Shown here: positions 18,865 through 28,147 of the stretch, one piece after another
How positions within the stretch are numbered: position 1 is the first letter of the stretch
Layout of the letters: each line of letters starts with the position of its first letter
Source: an uncultured bacterium
GTDB taxonomy: Bacteria; CAYJRR01
Reading direction: 5' to 3'
Assembly (NCBI GenBank): GCA_964372275.1
Contig: CAYJRR010000003.1
Location: forward strand, 12,638 to 76,637
Length of the DNA: 64,000 nt
Program-made: the position numbers and the translations under genes
Notes under the pieces: generated by a model
Databases searched by the model: none
What the model was told of the DNA's origin: nothing
The model's input: the letters and a program-made list of their open reading frames with translations, nothing else

Positions 18865-19611
18865 ATGGCTCGCGGGGGGTCGGTGGCGCCCGGGTCCGGC
18901 GTGGGGCGGTGGCGATCGACGCGGGCGTCGCTTCCCGGAGCGGCGCTCCTGTCGCTGGTGGCCTGCGCGGAGCGGCCGACGATCCCCGGGGCCGTCCCCT
19001 TTCCGAGGGCGCCGGCGGCGCCGGTGCTCGTTTCCGACGCGACGCTCCTCCTCGCCGGGGAGACGGTTCGGTTCTTCGATCCCCGCAGCGGAATCGGGAC
19101 GACGCTTCCGGAGGGCTGGGCCGGAAGCCTTCGCTTTCCCGCCGACGACAGCGGACCGCCGCCCGAGGGGGAGGTGCGCGCCCGATTCCGCTAGCCGGTG
19201 CCGGAGGGGTGCATCGTCGATCTGTCGATCGAAGCGGCGCTGCCACCCGACGAGGCGGCGGTGAAGGCCCTCCTTGCGCGGGGACGGGAGATCTACTACC
19301 TCGCTCGAGTCGACTGGCCGTCCCCCATCCTCCCGGTCGACGCCATCTGGACGGCCACCTTCCTGCCGCCGACGCCGGAGCGCGTCGACCTCGGCTATTG
19401 GCTGTCGACCGGCCCACGGACGGTGCGCGTCGAGGCCCGCGCGCCGTCCGAGCGACTGAGCGACTGCAAGGAACGGCTCGACGAGATCGTGCGCGCCCTC
19501 ACCGGCGGGGAGGGGTTCGGAGCGGCTCCGACGGAGCCCGACGGTCGGACCGACCCGGTCAGTCCCGGATCAGGAGCACGTACATCGCCACCCCCGAGAT
19601 CACGAGGATGA
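18865..19611 (+). pseudogene. Lipoprotein gene interrupted by an in-frame TAG at 19192..19194. Either a pseudogene or two adjacent genes in the same frame.
   Basis: 18865..19194 encodes a signal peptide with lipobox LSLVAC. 19198..19611 continues in the same frame after TAG-CCG. Both parts have high GC3. Confidence 0.3.
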
Positions 19612-19885
19612 GACCGGCGAAGATCCAGACGTTCGCCGTCGAGTCGGCGGCCGCGAGCCGGTCTTTCAGCACGGTGTGGTGGACCACACCCCACGCGGCG
19701 AGCCCGCCGATGTAGCAGGTGAGGAACCCCTTCCAACCCCGGAACAGCGCGAGCAGGCAGAAGCCGGCCGAGATCCCCAGGAACCACGGATTGTGGATCG
19801 CCTTGTCGAAGTCGGGGTGCGTGAGGAACTGGTTCGTCGCGTCGAGCGCCTGCTTCCAGTCGACGGCGGCGAGCAGGAGGGGCAT
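19559..19885 (-). CDS. Small membrane protein (108 aa, 3 TM), hypothetical
   Basis: MPLLLAAVDWKQ... followed by hydrophobic segments. It forms the C-terminal part of the 374-aa ORF-track entry, whose upstream part is an artefact. Confidence 0.5.
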   Translation of the reverse strand: MPLLLAAVDWKQALDATNQFLTHPDFDKAIHNPWFLGISAGFCLLALFRGWKGFLTCYIGGLAAWGVVHHTVLKDRLAAADSTANVWIFAGLILVISGVAMYVLLIRD

Positions 19886-19898
19886 AGATAGATAGTAA

Positions 19899-19975
19899 CC
19901 GGATCGGATCGGTTCGGATTCGGATACCGATACCGATCGGATCCGAACACCGTCGGATACGGCTACGGCGATCCG
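19899..19975 (+). repeat. Hexamer-periodic GGATCG/TTCGGA/TACCGA array, site B
   Basis: GGATCG GATCGG TTCGGA TTCGGA TACCGA TACCGA TCGGAT CCGAAC ... in the gap between two minus-strand genes. Confidence 0.3.
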
Positions 19976-20856
19976 TTCCAGGGCAGGCGGCCGCCGAGGG
20001 TCGACCCCGCGGCGCCGAGTCGATACAAGCCACGCCGCGCGCGAAGGACACGCGCGGCGAAGGCCTTGGCCGGTCCCCGGCGGAATCGCCGCTCGCGAAG
20101 GTAGACCGCGAGCAGCCGCAGCCACGACCGCCGGTTCACCTCGGCCCAGGTCGTGAGCAGCAGCATCCGGAGGTCGAGCGCCTGCACGTGGCGACGAAGC
20201 GCCTCCGGCAACGGACGCAGGTCCTTGGCCCGATCGAGGTCGATCAGCCAGAGACGCCGCCGTCCGGCGGGTCCGGCGATCACCACGTTGCTGGCGGTGA
20301 AGTCGCCGTGGAAGAAGCCGCCGGCGTGGAGTTGGGCGGCGAGGATCGCCACCTCCCGTAGAAGCGGTCCCGCCGCCGATCCGGCCGCGCGCAGGCGCTT
20401 GAGCTCGTCGGTGAGCAGCGTTCCGTCGTCGAGAGGGCGGGCGAGAAGGAGCGTCTCCCGGTGAAGCAGGCCCGCGCGGCGGCGGAGGAGCAGGAGCGGC
20501 TCCGGGGTGGCGACCCCGGCGGCGGAAAGCAGGCGCCCCATCCTCCAGGAGGTCTCGCCCCGTGTCGGGAAGAGCAGGTCGAACGCCAGCGCGAGACGAT
20601 TCTTCGGGAGGTAGTACTTGGCGTGGACCGGACGCCCCAGCGCCTCCGCCGGCAGGCGCATCGCCGCGCGATGGGGCCGCCATCGATCGAGGGCCCCGCC
20701 GTCCGGCAGCGCCTGCGCGAGCGCGTCGCGGCCGCCATCGGGTCGAAGCCGAGGGAACCAGGCGACGGCCGCCCGCACGAACGGATCGTCGACCCCCGCC
20801 GCGATCACCGCCGAGACGTCACCGATCCGGGCGAACCGTTCTTCGAGGCTGGTCAA
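19963..20856 (-). CDS. Lipopolysaccharide (Kdo/WaaP-type) kinase-family protein
   Basis: FFHGDFTASNVVI ... LIDLDRAK resembles the Kdo-kinase/InaA catalytic loop. Confidence 0.55.
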   Translation of the reverse strand: MTSLEERFARIGDVSAVIAAGVDDPFVRAAVAWFPRLRPDGGRDALAQALPDGGALDRWRPHRAAMRLPAEALGRPVHAKYYLPKNRLALAFDLLFPTRGETSWRMGRLLSAAGVATPEPLLLLRRRAGLLHRETLLLARPLDDGTLLTDELKRLRAAGSAAGPLLREVAILAAQLHAGGFFHGDFTASNVVIAGPAGRRRLWLIDLDRAKDLRPLPEALRRHVQALDLRMLLLTTWAEVNRRSWLRLLAVYLRERRFRRGPAKAFAARVLRARRGLYRLGAAGSTLGGRLPWNGSP

Positions 20857-20919
20857 CGGCCCGATTTTGGCCTACGCGAGTCGCCGTGTCCGGGAAAAAT
20901 CGGTCGCCGTCGACGATCG
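20815..20919 (+). repeat. Direct repeat copy 1 of about 105 bp (pairs with 22962..23065)
   Basis: GTCACCGATCCGGGCGAACCGTTCTTCGAGGCTGGTCAACGGCCCGATTTTGGCCTACGCGAGTCGCCGTGTCCGGGAAAAATCGGTCGCCGTCGACGATCG is about 90% identical to the second copy. Confidence 0.6.
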
Positions 20920-20933
20920 CACGCACCGATCCG

Positions 20934-23003
20934 TCACTCCGGCGGAGCCAGGTCCCTCGGCATCAGCAACCAGAACCGGCCGGTGGGGCTGCGTGATTCG
21001 ATGAAGTAGTTCGCCTCGGCGAAGTGGAGGAACGGCCTCCAGTGCAGCAGCTCCGGGGATCGTTGGAGCATCCTCGAATCGAGGACGAGCACCCGGTCGG
21101 ACGCGTGTTTCTTGACGGTCTCCACGAGCCGGTCCCGATCGTGAACGGTCAGGATCTCGGTGAGGCTGGGATGGAAGGCCGGCGGTGTGCCGGTCTTCAG
21201 GTAGAGGGTCGACGCGTTCAGCGACAGGAACAACGGTCGCCCGCGGGCGGGAAGGGATGCGAGGAAGGCCTGGTCGGGGTCGGCTTCCCCCTCGCCGCGC
21301 GCGTCTGCCCACAGGCGCCGCCATCGCTCCGCGAGGTGGAAACGGAGGTCGTATCCGGCGGCCAGTCCGGTCGCAAGCCACGACAGCAGGACCAGGGCCA
21401 CTCCGGAGGCGCACGCTCGGGACCGGGTCGTCGCCAGGAACCTCCGGACGAAGATCGTTCCGAGAAAGATCGCCGGCCAGGACACACCCACGAAGACCCG
21501 CCAATGGCTCCGCCCCTGGTAGTACACGAACAGTCCCGTTCCGACGACGGTGAGCACCAGGACGAGCGCGTGTCGTTCGGTCGCGGCGCCGTCGCGGCGA
21601 ACGAGCGGACGGATCGAATAGGCAAGGCCGAAGACGTAGACGATGGCGGCAAGCTGCCAGCTCTCGCGAATCGACATCGGCAACATGCCGAATCCGCTCC
21701 CGTAGAAGGTCTTCTGGTAGCTCCAGTGGGCGGCCCAGTCGGGAAAGGCGCCGACCCCGACGCGAAATGCCAGCGAGAACGCCGCGACGGCGGCGGCCAA
21801 GACGAGCAGTCCGGAGCCGACGCGGCCTGCGGCGGCGGCGATCGCCGAACGCTGGAACGGACGCCGCGCAAGCTCGCGATACGCGAGAAAGGCGAGCCAC
21901 GCGACGAAGGCCACGATTCCGGATTCGAGATTCCAGAGCACCCCCACCGAGAGGAACGCCGTGGCGATCCACCGGTAGCGCGCGGGCCGGGGGCGGGTCG
22001 CCATGGCGGCCGCCAGCCCGATCGCCGACGCGGGGAAGAGGACCCGAATCGGGAGCAGTTGGAAATAGGGGTCCAGGAGAAACCGGTTCCCGAGGAGCGC
22101 GACCCCCTTCGCATGGGACGCGAGAAAGGAGAACGAGACCCCCGCCGCCCAGCCGAGCGTCGCGAACCACAGCTCGCCGGTCGCGCGGCGCAACGCGATC
22201 CAGAGCAGGACCAGGGCCACCACGGTCAGAGCCGTGAACGTCAACGAGTATCGGACGACGTCGAGTCCGATGAGCTTGAACAGCGGCGCGAGGAGCACGC
22301 CATAGAGGCCGTACTGGGCGCCGGAGTCGAGGAGCGGCGGATGCCCGCGAACGGAGGACAGGACCGAGTGGAACGCGGACTCGAAGTGTCCATCGGACGT
22401 ATGCACGTACGGATCCGACGTCGAAAAGACTCCCACGCCGATCAACGGCGCGCAGACCGCCGCGACGATCGCCCACGCGACCAGGAGCTCGAGTCGAGGC
22501 GAAACCCGACCCGCCCATCGGGCCGACACCAGCCCGGCGAGACACGCGGGAACGACGAAAAACGGGTGGGCCGGGAGGGCGTGCAAGCTCCAGTACGGGA
22601 AGGGGTCGCCCGTATGGGTCCAGAGCGCGACCCCGCCGCCGAGGAGCGCCAGCGACCAACACCAGGCCCTCGGCCCATGCGACGTCCACCGATCCAGTCG
22701 CCGGTCGAGCTTCCATCCGAACCAGACCAGGAAGAAGAGAGGAAACCATAGAAGGGCGGCCTGGAAGACGGCCGATTCCGCCGGCTCCGGACGGACCCAG
22801 AATCGAACGAGCACATGGGACGAGGCGTCGGCGCGGGCCGGAGGGGTCCGATGGGCGACCAGGAACGCAAGGGGAACGAACAGCGCGATCGCGACGATCG
22901 CCGCCAGCGCGCACGAGACGAATCGGTGCCGCGACACGTGACGCTCGGAGTCGACGTCCGCGGCGTCGCCGATCCGGGCGGCCCCTTCTTCGAAGCTGGT
23001 CAA
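20934..23003 (-). CDS. Large polytopic membrane protein (689 aa, 12 or more TM), possibly an ArnT/PMT-like glycosyl- or aminoarabinosyl-transferase
   Basis: Many hydrophobic helices with Trp/Arg-rich loops. The N-terminal 15 aa are encoded inside repeat copy 2. I did not find a catalytic motif. Confidence 0.6.
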   Translation of the reverse strand: MTSFEEGAARIGDAADVDSERHVSRHRFVSCALAAIVAIALFVPLAFLVAHRTPPARADASSHVLVRFWVRPEPAESAVFQAALLWFPLFFLVWFGWKLDRRLDRWTSHGPRAWCWSLALLGGGVALWTHTGDPFPYWSLHALPAHPFFVVPACLAGLVSARWAGRVSPRLELLVAWAIVAAVCAPLIGVGVFSTSDPYVHTSDGHFESAFHSVLSSVRGHPPLLDSGAQYGLYGVLLAPLFKLIGLDVVRYSLTFTALTVVALVLLWIALRRATGELWFATLGWAAGVSFSFLASHAKGVALLGNRFLLDPYFQLLPIRVLFPASAIGLAAAMATRPRPARYRWIATAFLSVGVLWNLESGIVAFVAWLAFLAYRELARRPFQRSAIAAAAGRVGSGLLVLAAAVAAFSLAFRVGVGAFPDWAAHWSYQKTFYGSGFGMLPMSIRESWQLAAIVYVFGLAYSIRPLVRRDGAATERHALVLVLTVVGTGLFVYYQGRSHWRVFVGVSWPAIFLGTIFVRRFLATTRSRACASGVALVLLSWLATGLAAGYDLRFHLAERWRRLWADARGEGEADPDQAFLASLPARGRPLFLSLNASTLYLKTGTPPAFHPSLTEILTVHDRDRLVETVKKHASDRVLVLDSRMLQRSPELLHWRPFLHFAEANYFIESRSPTGRFWLLMPRDLAPPE

Positions 23004-23065
23004 CGGGCCGATTTTGGCCTACACGAGTCGTCGTGTCCGGGAAAAATCCGATGCTGTCGATGACC
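22962..23065 (+). repeat. Direct repeat copy 2 of about 105 bp
   Basis: See copy 1. This copy spans the start codon of the membrane-protein gene on the minus strand and the start of yicC on the plus strand. Confidence 0.6.
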
Positions 23066-23989
23066 GGATTCGGCGGCGCCGAGGCGAAACTGCCCGGCGG
23101 GCGCGTCGTGGTCGAGATCAAGTCGGTCAACCACCGGTACCTCGACGTCTCGGTCAAGGGACCTCGCGAATACGCCGCGCTCGAGGCGCGGATGGTCGAC
23201 GCGGTGCGCGGACGGCTGCGCCGCGGGAAGGTCGACTGCTTCGTCACCCGGCTCGTGGAGGAGCTTCCCGAAGGGGGGGTTCGGGTGAACGAGGGGCTCG
23301 CCCGTGGCCTTCGCGCGGCGTTCGAACGCCTTCGCTCCGAGCTGTCCCTCCCCGGCGAGGTCACCCTGGAGATGATCGCGGCGTTTCGCGACGTGGTGGC
23401 GGTCGACGCCGGGGCGGCCGACACCGAGCGTGACTGGCCCGCCCTCGAACGGGCGACGGCTTCGGCGCTCGACCGGCTGGTCGCGATGCGGCGTGAAGAG
23501 GGGCTGCGCCTGGCCGCGAGCCTTCGTGAGCTCGCCGCGGCGATGCGAGCGCTCTGGGGAAGGGCTTCGGCCCGGGCGCCGGCGGTGGTCGAGGAGTCGG
23601 CGGCCCGTCTCAAGGACCGGCTCGCGCGACTGCTGGGCGCCGCCGCCGGTACGGCGCCGGCGGCCGGCGTCAAGCCGGCGGCCGCCGCGGCCACCGTCGA
23701 GGAGTCGGCGCTCGATCCGGGGCGCCTGGCGCTGGAGGTGGCGATCCTCGCCGAACGGTCCGACGTCCACGAGGAGTTGGTGCGCCTGGAAAGCCATTTG
23801 GGGCAGCTCGAGAGTGCGATCGACGCAGGCGGGGAGATCGGTCGCAAGCTCGACTTCCTGTTGCAGGAGATCGGCCGTGAGGTGAACACGCTCGGCTCCA
23901 AGGCCAACGACGCGGAGCTCTCCCGCACGGTGATCGAGATGAAGTCGGTGGCGGAGCGGATCCGAGAGCAGATCCAGAACCTGGAATGA
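23051..23989 (+). CDS. yicC: YicC-family stress-induced protein (YicC N-terminal domain plus DUF1732)
   Basis: MLSMTGFGGAE N-terminus and a conserved C-terminal EIGRKLDFLLQEIGREVNTLGSKAND. Confidence 0.65.
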   Translation: MLSMTGFGGAEAKLPGGRVVVEIKSVNHRYLDVSVKGPREYAALEARMVDAVRGRLRRGKVDCFVTRLVEELPEGGVRVNEGLARGLRAAFERLRSELSLPGEVTLEMIAAFRDVVAVDAGAADTERDWPALERATASALDRLVAMRREEGLRLAASLRELAAAMRALWGRASARAPAVVEESAARLKDRLARLLGAAAGTAPAAGVKPAAAAATVEESALDPGRLALEVAILAERSDVHEELVRLESHLGQLESAIDAGGEIGRKLDFLLQEIGREVNTLGSKANDAELSRTVIEMKSVAERIREQIQNLE

Positions 23990-26038: not shown

Positions 26039-28147
26039 CTACGTGGCGTTTCGGCCGTCGACGGTGACGGTCCCGCGTTCGACGTCGACGAAGATCTTGG
26101 TCTCCCGGTCGGCGGCGATCTCGACGACGCGGTCGGCCTGGAATCCGGCGCGCGCGTTGATGAACTGGAACGCGTGTCGCCCGGCCGGGAGCTCCAGCCG
26201 GCGCAGCGGATCGCCGGCGCTGATCTGGCGGCCGCCGGTCCAGACTTCGACCCACGGGTCGGCGAGCACGGTGATCCACCCGCCGCGCACCGCCCCCGGC
26301 TTCGCCGCCTCGGTGACGGTGCGTGCCTTCGCCGACTCGGTGGGGGTGCGTGGCGCCGCTGCCGGGGTCGTTTCGCCGGCCGCGCGCGCCGTCGCCGGTC
26401 TCCCGACATCTCCGACCGCGATCGAGGGCGCGGTCGGGGCGACGTCGGCGGCGCGGGACGGCGCGGGCCGCTCGACCGACTCCGGCCGTGGCGCGGCGCG
26501 CCGCGTGGCGGGCGTCGACGCCGGCCGGTCCGCGTCGGCGAGGCTCGTGGCGTCGGTGCCCGGCGACCGTTCCACCACCGGCTCGGCGGGCACGGCCACG
26601 GCAATGGCCGTCGCCGGACGTTCCGAAACGACGCCGATCCGGAGACCGATCCCGAGGATCGCCGCCACCGCGCAGATCGCCGCGGCCGCCGCAAGCCATG
26701 TCCGGCGCCGGCGGCGCGGCCGAAGAGGCGCGGCGATTCCGCGGAGCGACCGCATCAGCGCGTCGGGGCGGAGGACGGCGAGCCCGTCGATCTCTCCGCC
26801 GGACCGCCGCGCCGGCACCACCTGGGCGCGTCCTTGCGAATCGACGCGGCAGCGCACCGCCCGGATCGGTTCGGGGCCGCGGGGGCCGACGCTCGCGACC
26901 GGCTGGATTACCGTCTCTTGCCGGTCGTGTTCGCGCTCGTGCTCCTGGACCAGCTCCGCCCAGGCCCGCTCCTCCGAATCTTCGGGCCCCGCCGGCGTCG
27001 CCTCGTCGAAGGCGGCCATGTCGACGCTCGGGCCCAGCCCTTCGGAGGTCACCGACTCCGCGTTTCCGCCGGAGATCACCGTGCCGGTCTCGGCGGCGAT
27101 CCAGGTGACGGGTCCGGTGGAGAGCACCGTCCTCTCGGCCTCCACCGAACCCTCGGGGGAGATCTGGGTCCTCTCCACCGTCTCGGCCCGTTCGATCCCC
27201 TCCGCGCGCCGCTCGTCGCCGAAGTTCTCCTCGAGCAGCCCCGCAAGCAGCGATCGGAACGGGGTCACCGGCGCGCCGAGCAGCCGTCCGAGATCGGCCT
27301 CGACGGCGGCGGCGTCCTGGTAGCGCGCCTCCCGGTCGGCCTGCAGGAGGCGCCCGACGATCGGCCGCACCCGCTCCGGGATCTCCGCCAACGCCGCCGG
27401 CTCCAGACCCTGGAACGCCGCAATCCTCTCGAAGATGGCGTCGCTCGAGTCTCCGGTGAAGAGCCGCCGGCCGGTGACCATCTCGTAGAGCAACAATCCG
27501 ATACCAAACAAATCGCTGCGGTGGTCGAGCGGCCGGAGGTTCGCCTGCTCCGGGCTCAGGTAGCCGATCTTCCCCTTCCAGACGCCGCTCTGGGTCTGCG
27601 CCACGGCGCTCGCCACCTTGGCGATCCCGAAGTCGACCACCTTCACTTCGCCGCGGTAGGAGACCAGGATGTTTTGCGGCGAGATGTCGCGGTGCACGAT
27701 CCCCAGCGGACGGCCGTCGGCGTCGGTCTCGGCGTGCGCGTAGGCGAGCGCTTTGGCGACCTCGCCCGCGATGAACAGCGCCGCCTCGATCGGCATGCGG
27801 CGGCCGCGGTCGGCGAGGCGCCGGAGCAGGTCGCACAGGTCCTGCCCGGCGACGTACTCCATCGCCATGTAGTAGTCGGCGTGGGTCAGACCCGGCCCGT
27901 GGGTGGCGTTGGGATCGCCGACCCCGAAGTCGAAGACCTGAACGATGTTGGGGTGCTCCAGGCGGGCGACCAGCTTCGCCTCCGCGGCGAACATCTCGCT
28001 GTCGGTCTCCCCCAGGAGGTGGGGGAGGATCCGCTTGATCGCGACCACCTTCTCGAAGCCGGCGGGGCCCCGGACGACCGCCTTCCAGACCTCGGCCATG
28101 CCACCGGTCCCGACGCGGCGCAGGAGCTTGTATCGTCCCAGGTGCAT
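26039..28147 (-). CDS. Eukaryotic-like Ser/Thr protein kinase with a TM segment and a C-terminal PEGA-like domain
   Basis: GTGGMAEVWKA, VAIK, HRDISPQNILV and DFGIAKV motifs. TM segment WLAAAAAICAVAAILGIGL. C-terminal WITVLADPWVEVWTGGRQI...RHAFQF. Confidence 0.75.
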   Translation of the reverse strand: MHLGRYKLLRRVGTGGMAEVWKAVVRGPAGFEKVVAIKRILPHLLGETDSEMFAAEAKLVARLEHPNIVQVFDFGVGDPNATHGPGLTHADYYMAMEYVAGQDLCDLLRRLADRGRRMPIEAALFIAGEVAKALAYAHAETDADGRPLGIVHRDISPQNILVSYRGEVKVVDFGIAKVASAVAQTQSGVWKGKIGYLSPEQANLRPLDHRSDLFGIGLLLYEMVTGRRLFTGDSSDAIFERIAAFQGLEPAALAEIPERVRPIVGRLLQADREARYQDAAAVEADLGRLLGAPVTPFRSLLAGLLEENFGDERRAEGIERAETVERTQISPEGSVEAERTVLSTGPVTWIAAETGTVISGGNAESVTSEGLGPSVDMAAFDEATPAGPEDSEERAWAELVQEHEREHDRQETVIQPVASVGPRGPEPIRAVRCRVDSQGRAQVVPARRSGGEIDGLAVLRPDALMRSLRGIAAPLRPRRRRRTWLAAAAAICAVAAILGIGLRIGVVSERPATAIAVAVPAEPVVERSPGTDATSLADADRPASTPATRRAAPRPESVERPAPSRAADVAPTAPSIAVGDVGRPATARAAGETTPAAAPRTPTESAKARTVTEAAKPGAVRGGWITVLADPWVEVWTGGRQISAGDPLRRLELPAGRHAFQFINARAGFQADRVVEIAADRETKIFVDVERGTVTVDGRNAT

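Follow-up and report, generated by a model that had tools for sequence, protein, structure and literature searches.

How did a gene for a large membrane protein come to lie inside a tightly spaced divergent gene pair, and why is it bracketed there by two copies of the same sequence? The question is raised by a 64,000-nt stretch of DNA from an uncultured bacterium (contig CAYJRR010000003.1, positions 12,638 to 76,637), hereafter the window, in which a 689-residue membrane-protein open reading frame (ORF) separates a Kdo/WaaP-family kinase-like gene on the minus strand from the endoribonuclease gene yicC on the plus strand. An initial annotation of this DNA had offered two origins for the arrangement: the membrane-protein gene was inserted next to the kinase-yicC divergent promoter with the junction duplicated, or the promoter and leader were duplicated so that two envelope genes are co-regulated. 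We found that each copy of the repeat is a complete kinase-yicC junction of the kind that relatives carry once, and we consider it probable that one event inserted a single gene into this junction and duplicated 109 bp of the target.

The repeat is a duplicated gene junction

The repeat search returned two direct copies, 20811-20919 and 22958-23066, each 109 nt long, ungapped and spaced by 2147 bp. The spacing agrees with the initial annotation, and the extent is refined to 109 nt. The identity of about 90% given there was too high for the repeat as a whole: a base-by-base count gave 93 matches in 109 positions (85.3%), with 16 positions differing, and only the central 66 nt reach 92%. The four longest stretches without a mismatch measure 17, 15, 12, and 12 nt. 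At both edges the similarity ends sharply, the 20-nt blocks just beyond either end being only 20-40% identical in register. Random 109-mer pairs from the window had a mean identity of 29% (standard deviation 5%, maximum 53%, 200,000 trials), which gives the repeat a z-score of 10.9; blastn of copy 1 against copy 2 gave E = 8.5e-32 and detected no third copy within the 64-kb window. The sequence is not low-complexity, and the similarity is neither below 70% nor limited to low-complexity GC runs. The parts of the two copies and the segment between them are as follows.

20811..20919: repeat copy 1, made up of the authentic kinase 5' end (20811-20856), a 47-nt spacer (20857-20903) and a decayed yicC remnant (20904-20919)
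22958..23066: repeat copy 2, made up of a kinase 5' remnant (22958-23003), the spacer (23004-23050) and the authentic yicC start (23051-23066)
20904..20919, plus strand: yicC remnant in copy 1, ATG CTG TCG ATG ACC G having become TCG CCG TCG ACG ATC G
22958..23003, minus strand: 15 kinase-derived codons, MTSFEEGAARIGDAA, at the 5' end of the membrane-protein ORF
20863..20874 in copy 1 and 23010-23021 in copy 2, minus strand: family-conserved core motif TAGGCCAAAAT(C), whose final three bases are ATG in relatives and ATC here
20920..22957, minus strand: inserted segment of 2,038 bp, consisting of one ORF, a 14-nt tail behind the stop codon and about 20 nt ahead of an internal GTG
20934..23003, minus strand: membrane-protein ORF, 689 amino acids from TTG 23003, with a possible native start at GTG 22937 and a predicted GT-C fold

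Each copy equals the whole ancestral junction: 46 nt from the kinase coding sequence and 16 nt from that of yicC, on either side of the 47-nt spacer; in codons, the duplicated unit contains the first 15 of the kinase and the first 5 of yicC together with the entire spacer. Both copies thereby carry coding sequence of a gene that they no longer serve. In copy 1 the yicC remnant has 5 of its 16 bases changed and has lost both ATGs. Copy 2 holds, as first annotated, the upstream region and start of yicC: ATG 23051 opens the reading MLSMTGFG, and position 1 of the YicC-like_N profile falls on residue 1. The kinase-derived peptide at the head of the membrane-protein ORF has no counterpart in an alignment of the homologues of that protein. 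The decayed yicC 5' end in copy 1 and the kinase codons in copy 2 together imply that the junction was contiguous before the insertion.

Both minus-strand ORFs begin right behind a TAG stop codon (*AKIGPLTSLEERFARIGDVSAV... and *AKIGPLTSFEEGAARIGDAADV..., the asterisk marking the stop) and share the N-terminal reading *AKIGPLTS(L/F)EE.... The earlier claim that two genes have the same 5' end stands for the ORFs, whose N-terminal peptides match, and does not extend to the proteins actually made. The kinase parts of copy 2 and copy 1 differ by six non-synonymous changes and one synonymous change, a proportion in which purifying selection on the shared peptide is not apparent. Nor is the repeat a structured RNA element, since it has no Rfam match at E <= 1 and its fold z-scores, -0.9 to +0.8 over both strands, include no significant value.

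Relatives of the locus were found through kinase homologues, and seven of them (L004-L009 and L012; kinase 52-59% identical) show the junction. In all seven, the kinase gene lies directly next to yicC and is transcribed divergently from it, and in none does a membrane-protein gene lie between them, which is the outcome that the synteny comparison proposed in the initial annotation was meant to look for; likewise, no relative among the loci examined has the arrangement of the window without a repeat. The distance from yicC codon 1 to the kinase ATG is 40-49 bp in these loci, and the spacer of the window is of like size (47 bp from TTG to ATG, 38 bp when counted from ATC). In blastn, copy 2 matched the single junction of L007 at 73% over 83 nt (E = 5.5e-4) and that of L005 at 86% over 29 nt. 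Both copies are homologous at the DNA level to the relatives' single junction, and the direct repeats are thus derived from the target. Furthermore, six of the seven relatives have TAGGCCAAAAT or a near variant immediately before the kinase ATG, with the ATG as part of it. The conserved gene order extends past the kinase gene to a small membrane-protein gene, with MeaB nearby in L004 and L008. Scans of the GTDB representative genomes with the kinase alone and with a kinase alignment returned no relative.

The two copies also give the polarity of the event. The kinase N-terminus encoded by copy 1 is typical of its family, reading (I)GPLTSL... in the window, MRALTSL... in L005 and MxxLE/NS... 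in the other relatives. The same N-terminus in copy 2 is fused to an unrelated protein whose homologues do not have it. Copy 1 borders the real kinase gene; copy 2 borders the real yicC gene, and its kinase part is a relic in frame with the membrane-protein ORF.

Insertion with target duplication and the competing histories

The ancestral locus would have been a compact divergent pair, in the order kinase gene, spacer of 40-49 bp, and yicC. A 2,038-bp segment consisting essentially of one promoterless ORF would then have entered the kinase-yicC junction in the lineage of the window, and the same event would have doubled the whole spacer, 15 kinase codons and 5 yicC codons. The first of the two origins in the initial annotation is in this respect supported, by the synteny of the relatives and by the remnants in both copies. 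The second, promoter or leader duplication with co-regulation, is likely a consequence of the same event rather than a rival origin.

A version of that second origin can still be told in two steps: the membrane-protein gene arrived first, and the kinase promoter and leader were copied in front of it later and retained for co-regulating two envelope genes. It would explain why the family-conserved core is present in both copies and why the repeat is more strongly conserved in its centre than toward its edges, and the kinase family and a GT-C enzyme could plausibly serve one envelope pathway. However, the repeat units meet the insert exactly at its two ends, and each continues seamlessly into its ancestral gene. 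The useless yicC remnant in copy 1 and the kinase remnant in copy 2 are what one target duplication predicts and are not expected of a promoter copy placed for use. We regard the two-step history as quite unlikely.

The filled arrangement might instead be ancestral to the group, the relatives having lost the membrane-protein gene by recombination between the repeat copies. The window kinase is roughly equidistant from all relatives (50-59% identity), and on that topology one loss in a sister clade is as parsimonious as one gain. Yet the repeat would still need an insertion into a contiguous junction, and an ancestral insertion alters the date of the event and not its nature. The inspected homologues of the membrane protein never occur at a kinase-yicC junction elsewhere, and the longest identical run between the copies, 17 nt, makes a poor substrate for homologous recombination today. 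In our judgment ancestral presence followed by loss is very unlikely.

It is common for integrated islands to duplicate tens of bases of the gene they target, and a direct repeat around a foreign-looking cargo invites comparison with the attL and attR sites of a site-specific integrating element that brought its own target copy and has since decayed to a single cargo gene. Target-derived direct repeats are indeed present, but the insert contains no integrase, recombinase or any further gene: a single ORF flanked by 14 nt on one side and 20 nt on the other is all it holds, and its neighbors are the kinase gene and yicC. Terminal inverted repeats are missing, and the site has no genuine tRNA gene. 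Homologues of the membrane protein were not found on plasmids, and those inspected have no flanking repeats elsewhere; the G+C content of the insert at third codon positions (GC3) is not foreign. A recognizable integrated element is unsupported on these grounds, and a decayed one is in our view highly unlikely. Campbell-type (single-crossover) integration and genomic islands more broadly resemble the locus in having target-homologous direct repeats of tens to hundreds of bases and in restoring the disrupted genes through the duplicated segment; they differ in that the window has no recombinase gene or true tRNA target there and no sign of a circular donor bearing junction sequence. Finally, chance similarity or an assembly artefact, which the origin of the contig in a metagenome assembly and a G+C-rich background that inflates short matches might bring to mind, can practically be dismissed, given z = 10.9 and E = 8.5e-32, unique sequence at both insert junctions, and copies that differ at 16 positions with no identical run above 17 nt, which an assembler could not have collapsed or mis-joined.

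Several points weigh against a single insertion with target duplication, or at least against parts of it. The sampled relatives are distant (kinase at most 59% identical) and include no close pair of empty and filled sites, and the insertion cannot be dated. A target duplication of 109 bp lies far beyond any standard transposition footprint. No donor copy of the membrane-protein gene was found. The in-frame kinase remnant could be due to chance, one frame in three being the right one and stop codons being rare at 70% G+C. No match to a sigma-70 consensus promoter was found in 19800-23300 on either strand, and any promoter activity of the two copies is therefore argued from position and conservation. 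The divergence within the repeat is likewise ambiguous. Divergence is 7.6% in the central 66 nt against 25.6% at the edges (for a partition chosen post hoc, Fisher p = 0.013), and the low central value would fit constraint on the regulatory core of both copies; it could equally have been lowered by gene conversion between them, the split was chosen after seeing the data, and the difference in divergence between the family-conserved core and the remaining repeat is not significant (p = 0.15).

For the duplication that a single insertion would entail, the candidates are replication switching template and resuming 109 bp back, recombination with a circular intermediate through a single crossover, and the filling in of a break with widely staggered ends. 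The 10-mer CACCGATCCG occurs at 20820-20829, in the kinase part of copy 1, and again at 20924-20933, in the 14-nt tail behind the stop codon of the membrane-protein gene. About 1% of random 30-mers share a 10-nt match of this kind with the copies. The match, which was noticed post hoc, is suggestive and hints at a microhomology footprint of the insertion. One may go further and imagine a general bacterial route, in which a template switch, replicative or microhomology-mediated, or a circular single-gene intermediate plugs a promoterless ORF into a compact bidirectional promoter, the restart about 100 bp back duplicates the control region, and the newcomer receives the resident's start codon together with its first 15 codons; CACCGATCCG would then be the footprint of the switch, and the N-terminal peptide would be truly translated in both proteins. 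This extended proposal is unlikely, and we offer it as a conjecture.

Among known systems, a transposon or insertion sequence was rejected because the insert holds no mobility gene, its ends bear no inverted repeats and the duplication, at 109 bp, is not short. Classical transposon target-site duplications measure 2-14 bp and are of fixed length for each element. The likeness to them is the direct duplication of host target DNA, and not of element DNA, around the insert; the difference is the length of 109 bp, the lack of a transposase and of terminal inverted repeats, and an insert that consists entirely of one ordinary gene. An integron gene cassette was also rejected, there being no attC-like structure: only 14 nt separate the stop codon from copy 1, with no Rfam match and no significant secondary structure.

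A comparable case has been described in a plant. In Arabidopsis, transposed single non-transposon genes are flanked by direct repeats that are mostly genic and homologous to the orthologous empty target, and insertion of a circular recombination product is proposed (Woodhouse et al., 2010; PMC2869330). The two cases are alike in the movement of an ordinary gene and in the target-derived direct repeats. They differ in the host, a eukaryote there and a bacterium here, and in that the present insert is cut down to one ORF and has no parent copy that could be found.

We concluded that the locus is an unusual variant of insertion with target duplication and not a new kind of molecular system. It is a clear and fairly ordinary piece of genome evolution, showing how a gene can enter a very tight divergent pair without either neighbor having to be silenced. 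Duplication of the junction would keep both control regions and supply one to the newcomer, which bears on how new genes gain expression signals and join operons. It also carries a warning for annotation, since a duplication can leave unrelated proteins with identical N-terminal peptides as relics.

The inserted gene and its product

The sole ORF of the insert encodes the membrane protein with the predicted GT-C fold; no transposase, integrase or other mobility gene was found in the segment, and no inverted pair joins 20920-20960 with 22920-22957. Base composition gave no support for a recent foreign origin: GC3 is 0.85, within the range of the window genes (0.89 +/- 0.035 for 30 genes).

The 689-residue protein has no match in Pfam or NCBIfam. 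An AlphaFold model built from a 10-sequence alignment has a predicted local distance difference test score (pLDDT) of 77 and a predicted template modeling score of 0.83, with pLDDT below 50 for residues 1-19 of the long form. In Foldseek searches of the PDB with this model, the 12 best matches are all GT-C enzymes (ArnT, DPY19, AglB, AftA, PglB), with probability 1.00 and TM-scores of 0.28-0.44, and GT-C enzymes are essentially the only matches at E <= 1e-3. By this model the inserted protein has a GT-C glycosyltransferase fold. A PEPxE motif just after the first transmembrane helix is invariant in the family alignment (P72, E73, E76); it would form an acidic motif in the first loop outside the membrane, with a putative catalytic role, if the topology suggested by the sequence is right. 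The modeled fold, and possibly the PEPxE motif, liken the protein to the GT-C glycosyltransferases ArnT, PglB/AglB, AftA, DPY19, and PMT, from which it differs in having no sequence-family membership and in the low TM-scores (0.34-0.44). One homologue sits behind genes for a nucleotidyltransferase, an epimerase/dehydratase and a DegT aminotransferase, that is, in a nucleotide-sugar operon. Fold and context together make the cargo a probable, predicted lipid-linked-sugar glycosyltransferase.

The family is large. A profile search returned 2,923 clusters at 50% identity with E <= 1e-3, of which 1,286 had E <= 1e-30, and none of 10 members tested had a Pfam match even at E <= 1; it looks like an unannotated glycosyltransferase family. 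Fifteen homologues were detectable by word sharing, all at most 38% identical to the protein of the window. Those inspected lie in unrelated neighborhoods, never at a kinase-yicC junction, and no flanking repeats were found around them. No homologue was found on a plasmid, tblastn detected no paralogue in the window, and an exact look-up of the window's membrane protein returned no contig.

Start codons, expression and flanking genes

The genes on either side of the insert and repeat are as follows.

19559..19870, minus strand: small conserved membrane-protein gene, downstream of the kinase gene
19963..20856, minus strand: Kdo/WaaP-family kinase-like gene, 297 amino acids from TTG; PF06293, 51.6 bits against a Pfam cut-off of 21.3
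23051..23989, plus strand: yicC, YicC/YloC-family endoribonuclease gene; PF03755 and PF08340; TIGR00255, 200.6 bits against 167.5

The kinase was first described as Kdo-kinase-like. Membership in the Kdo/WaaP family (PF06293) stands, and identity as a Kdo kinase does not follow from the profiles: neither NCBIfam equivalog cut-off was reached, the scores being 37.5 against 142 bits for KdkA and 24.5 against 170 bits for RfaP.

The 5' region of both minus-strand ORFs carries a changed codon in the core motif. In relatives the kinase starts at the ATG directly after TAGGCCAAA, and this codon is ATC in both copies (20863-20865 and 23010-23012, minus strand); the change is therefore either older than the duplication or was spread by gene conversion. 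With ATC in place of the ATG, the TTG three codons downstream is the first canonical start, and the kinase must begin either there or at the rare start ATC. The initial annotation placed a minus-strand start codon in each copy: a TTG is present in each, but it is only the first canonical start, and the ATG of the relatives, 9 nt upstream, has become ATC. The membrane protein starts either at the kinase-derived TTG 23003 or at the internal GTG 22937. Initiation at the TTG would lengthen the protein by about 22 residues, which are absent from the homologues and predicted to be disordered. In the family alignment the GTG falls where the closest homologue begins, the window reading (V)SRHRF there and the homologue MTCAQSRF.

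Since the spacer is only about 40 bp, the geometry suggests that the control signals of either gene have to extend into the 5' end of its partner. A simple insertion would sever one gene from its signals, and the duplication would leave every gene an upstream region: yicC would retain its native upstream sequence in copy 2, the kinase gene its own in copy 1, and the incoming membrane-protein gene would sit behind a second copy of the kinase upstream region. Kinase-type control would then apply to the newcomer, its transcription running away from yicC, with both copies acting as putative promoters.

On the minus strand the membrane-protein gene is followed by the kinase gene after 77 nt and the kinase gene by the small membrane-protein gene after 92 nt. 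As for terminators, the membrane-kinase gap contains only one weak hairpin with a T-run, and this is unconvincing, the region having 5 such sites against about 2 expected. The short gap and the lack of a convincing terminator in it suggest that the three genes probably form one operon. The hairpin with its T-run (20904-20916, minus strand) occurs only in copy 1, was made by the substitutions that removed the yicC ATGs, and may be due to chance. On the opposite strand of the same region (20886-20996), copy 1 retains the GTG and A-rich stretch found ahead of yicC in copy 2, and these open a 36-codon ORF antisense to the 3' end of the membrane-protein gene; if the yicC-side signals in copy 1 were still active, they would drive antisense transcription into that gene.

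The small membrane-protein gene comes after the kinase gene in L005, L006, L008, L009, and L010 as well, and in L004 it is found on the other side of yicC. Two adjoining 32-nt GATCGG-rich units, 72% alike, occupy 19902-19966 between the kinase stop codon and the start of this gene. Within the yicC coding sequence, ARAGORN called a 95-nt tRNA-Leu(CAA) at 23577-23671 (plus strand), which overlaps an Ala/Pro-rich linker with an internal repeat spaced by 78 nt; Rfam gave no match there at E <= 1, which makes the call a probable false positive.

Two further repeats lie at a distance from the junction. A long inverted similarity links 1290-1566 with 27616-27892 (200 nt at 71% and 57 nt at 84%); both are distant coding regions and probably encode paralogous domains. 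A 90-nt tandem repeat is found at 2645-2812, within a large ORF.

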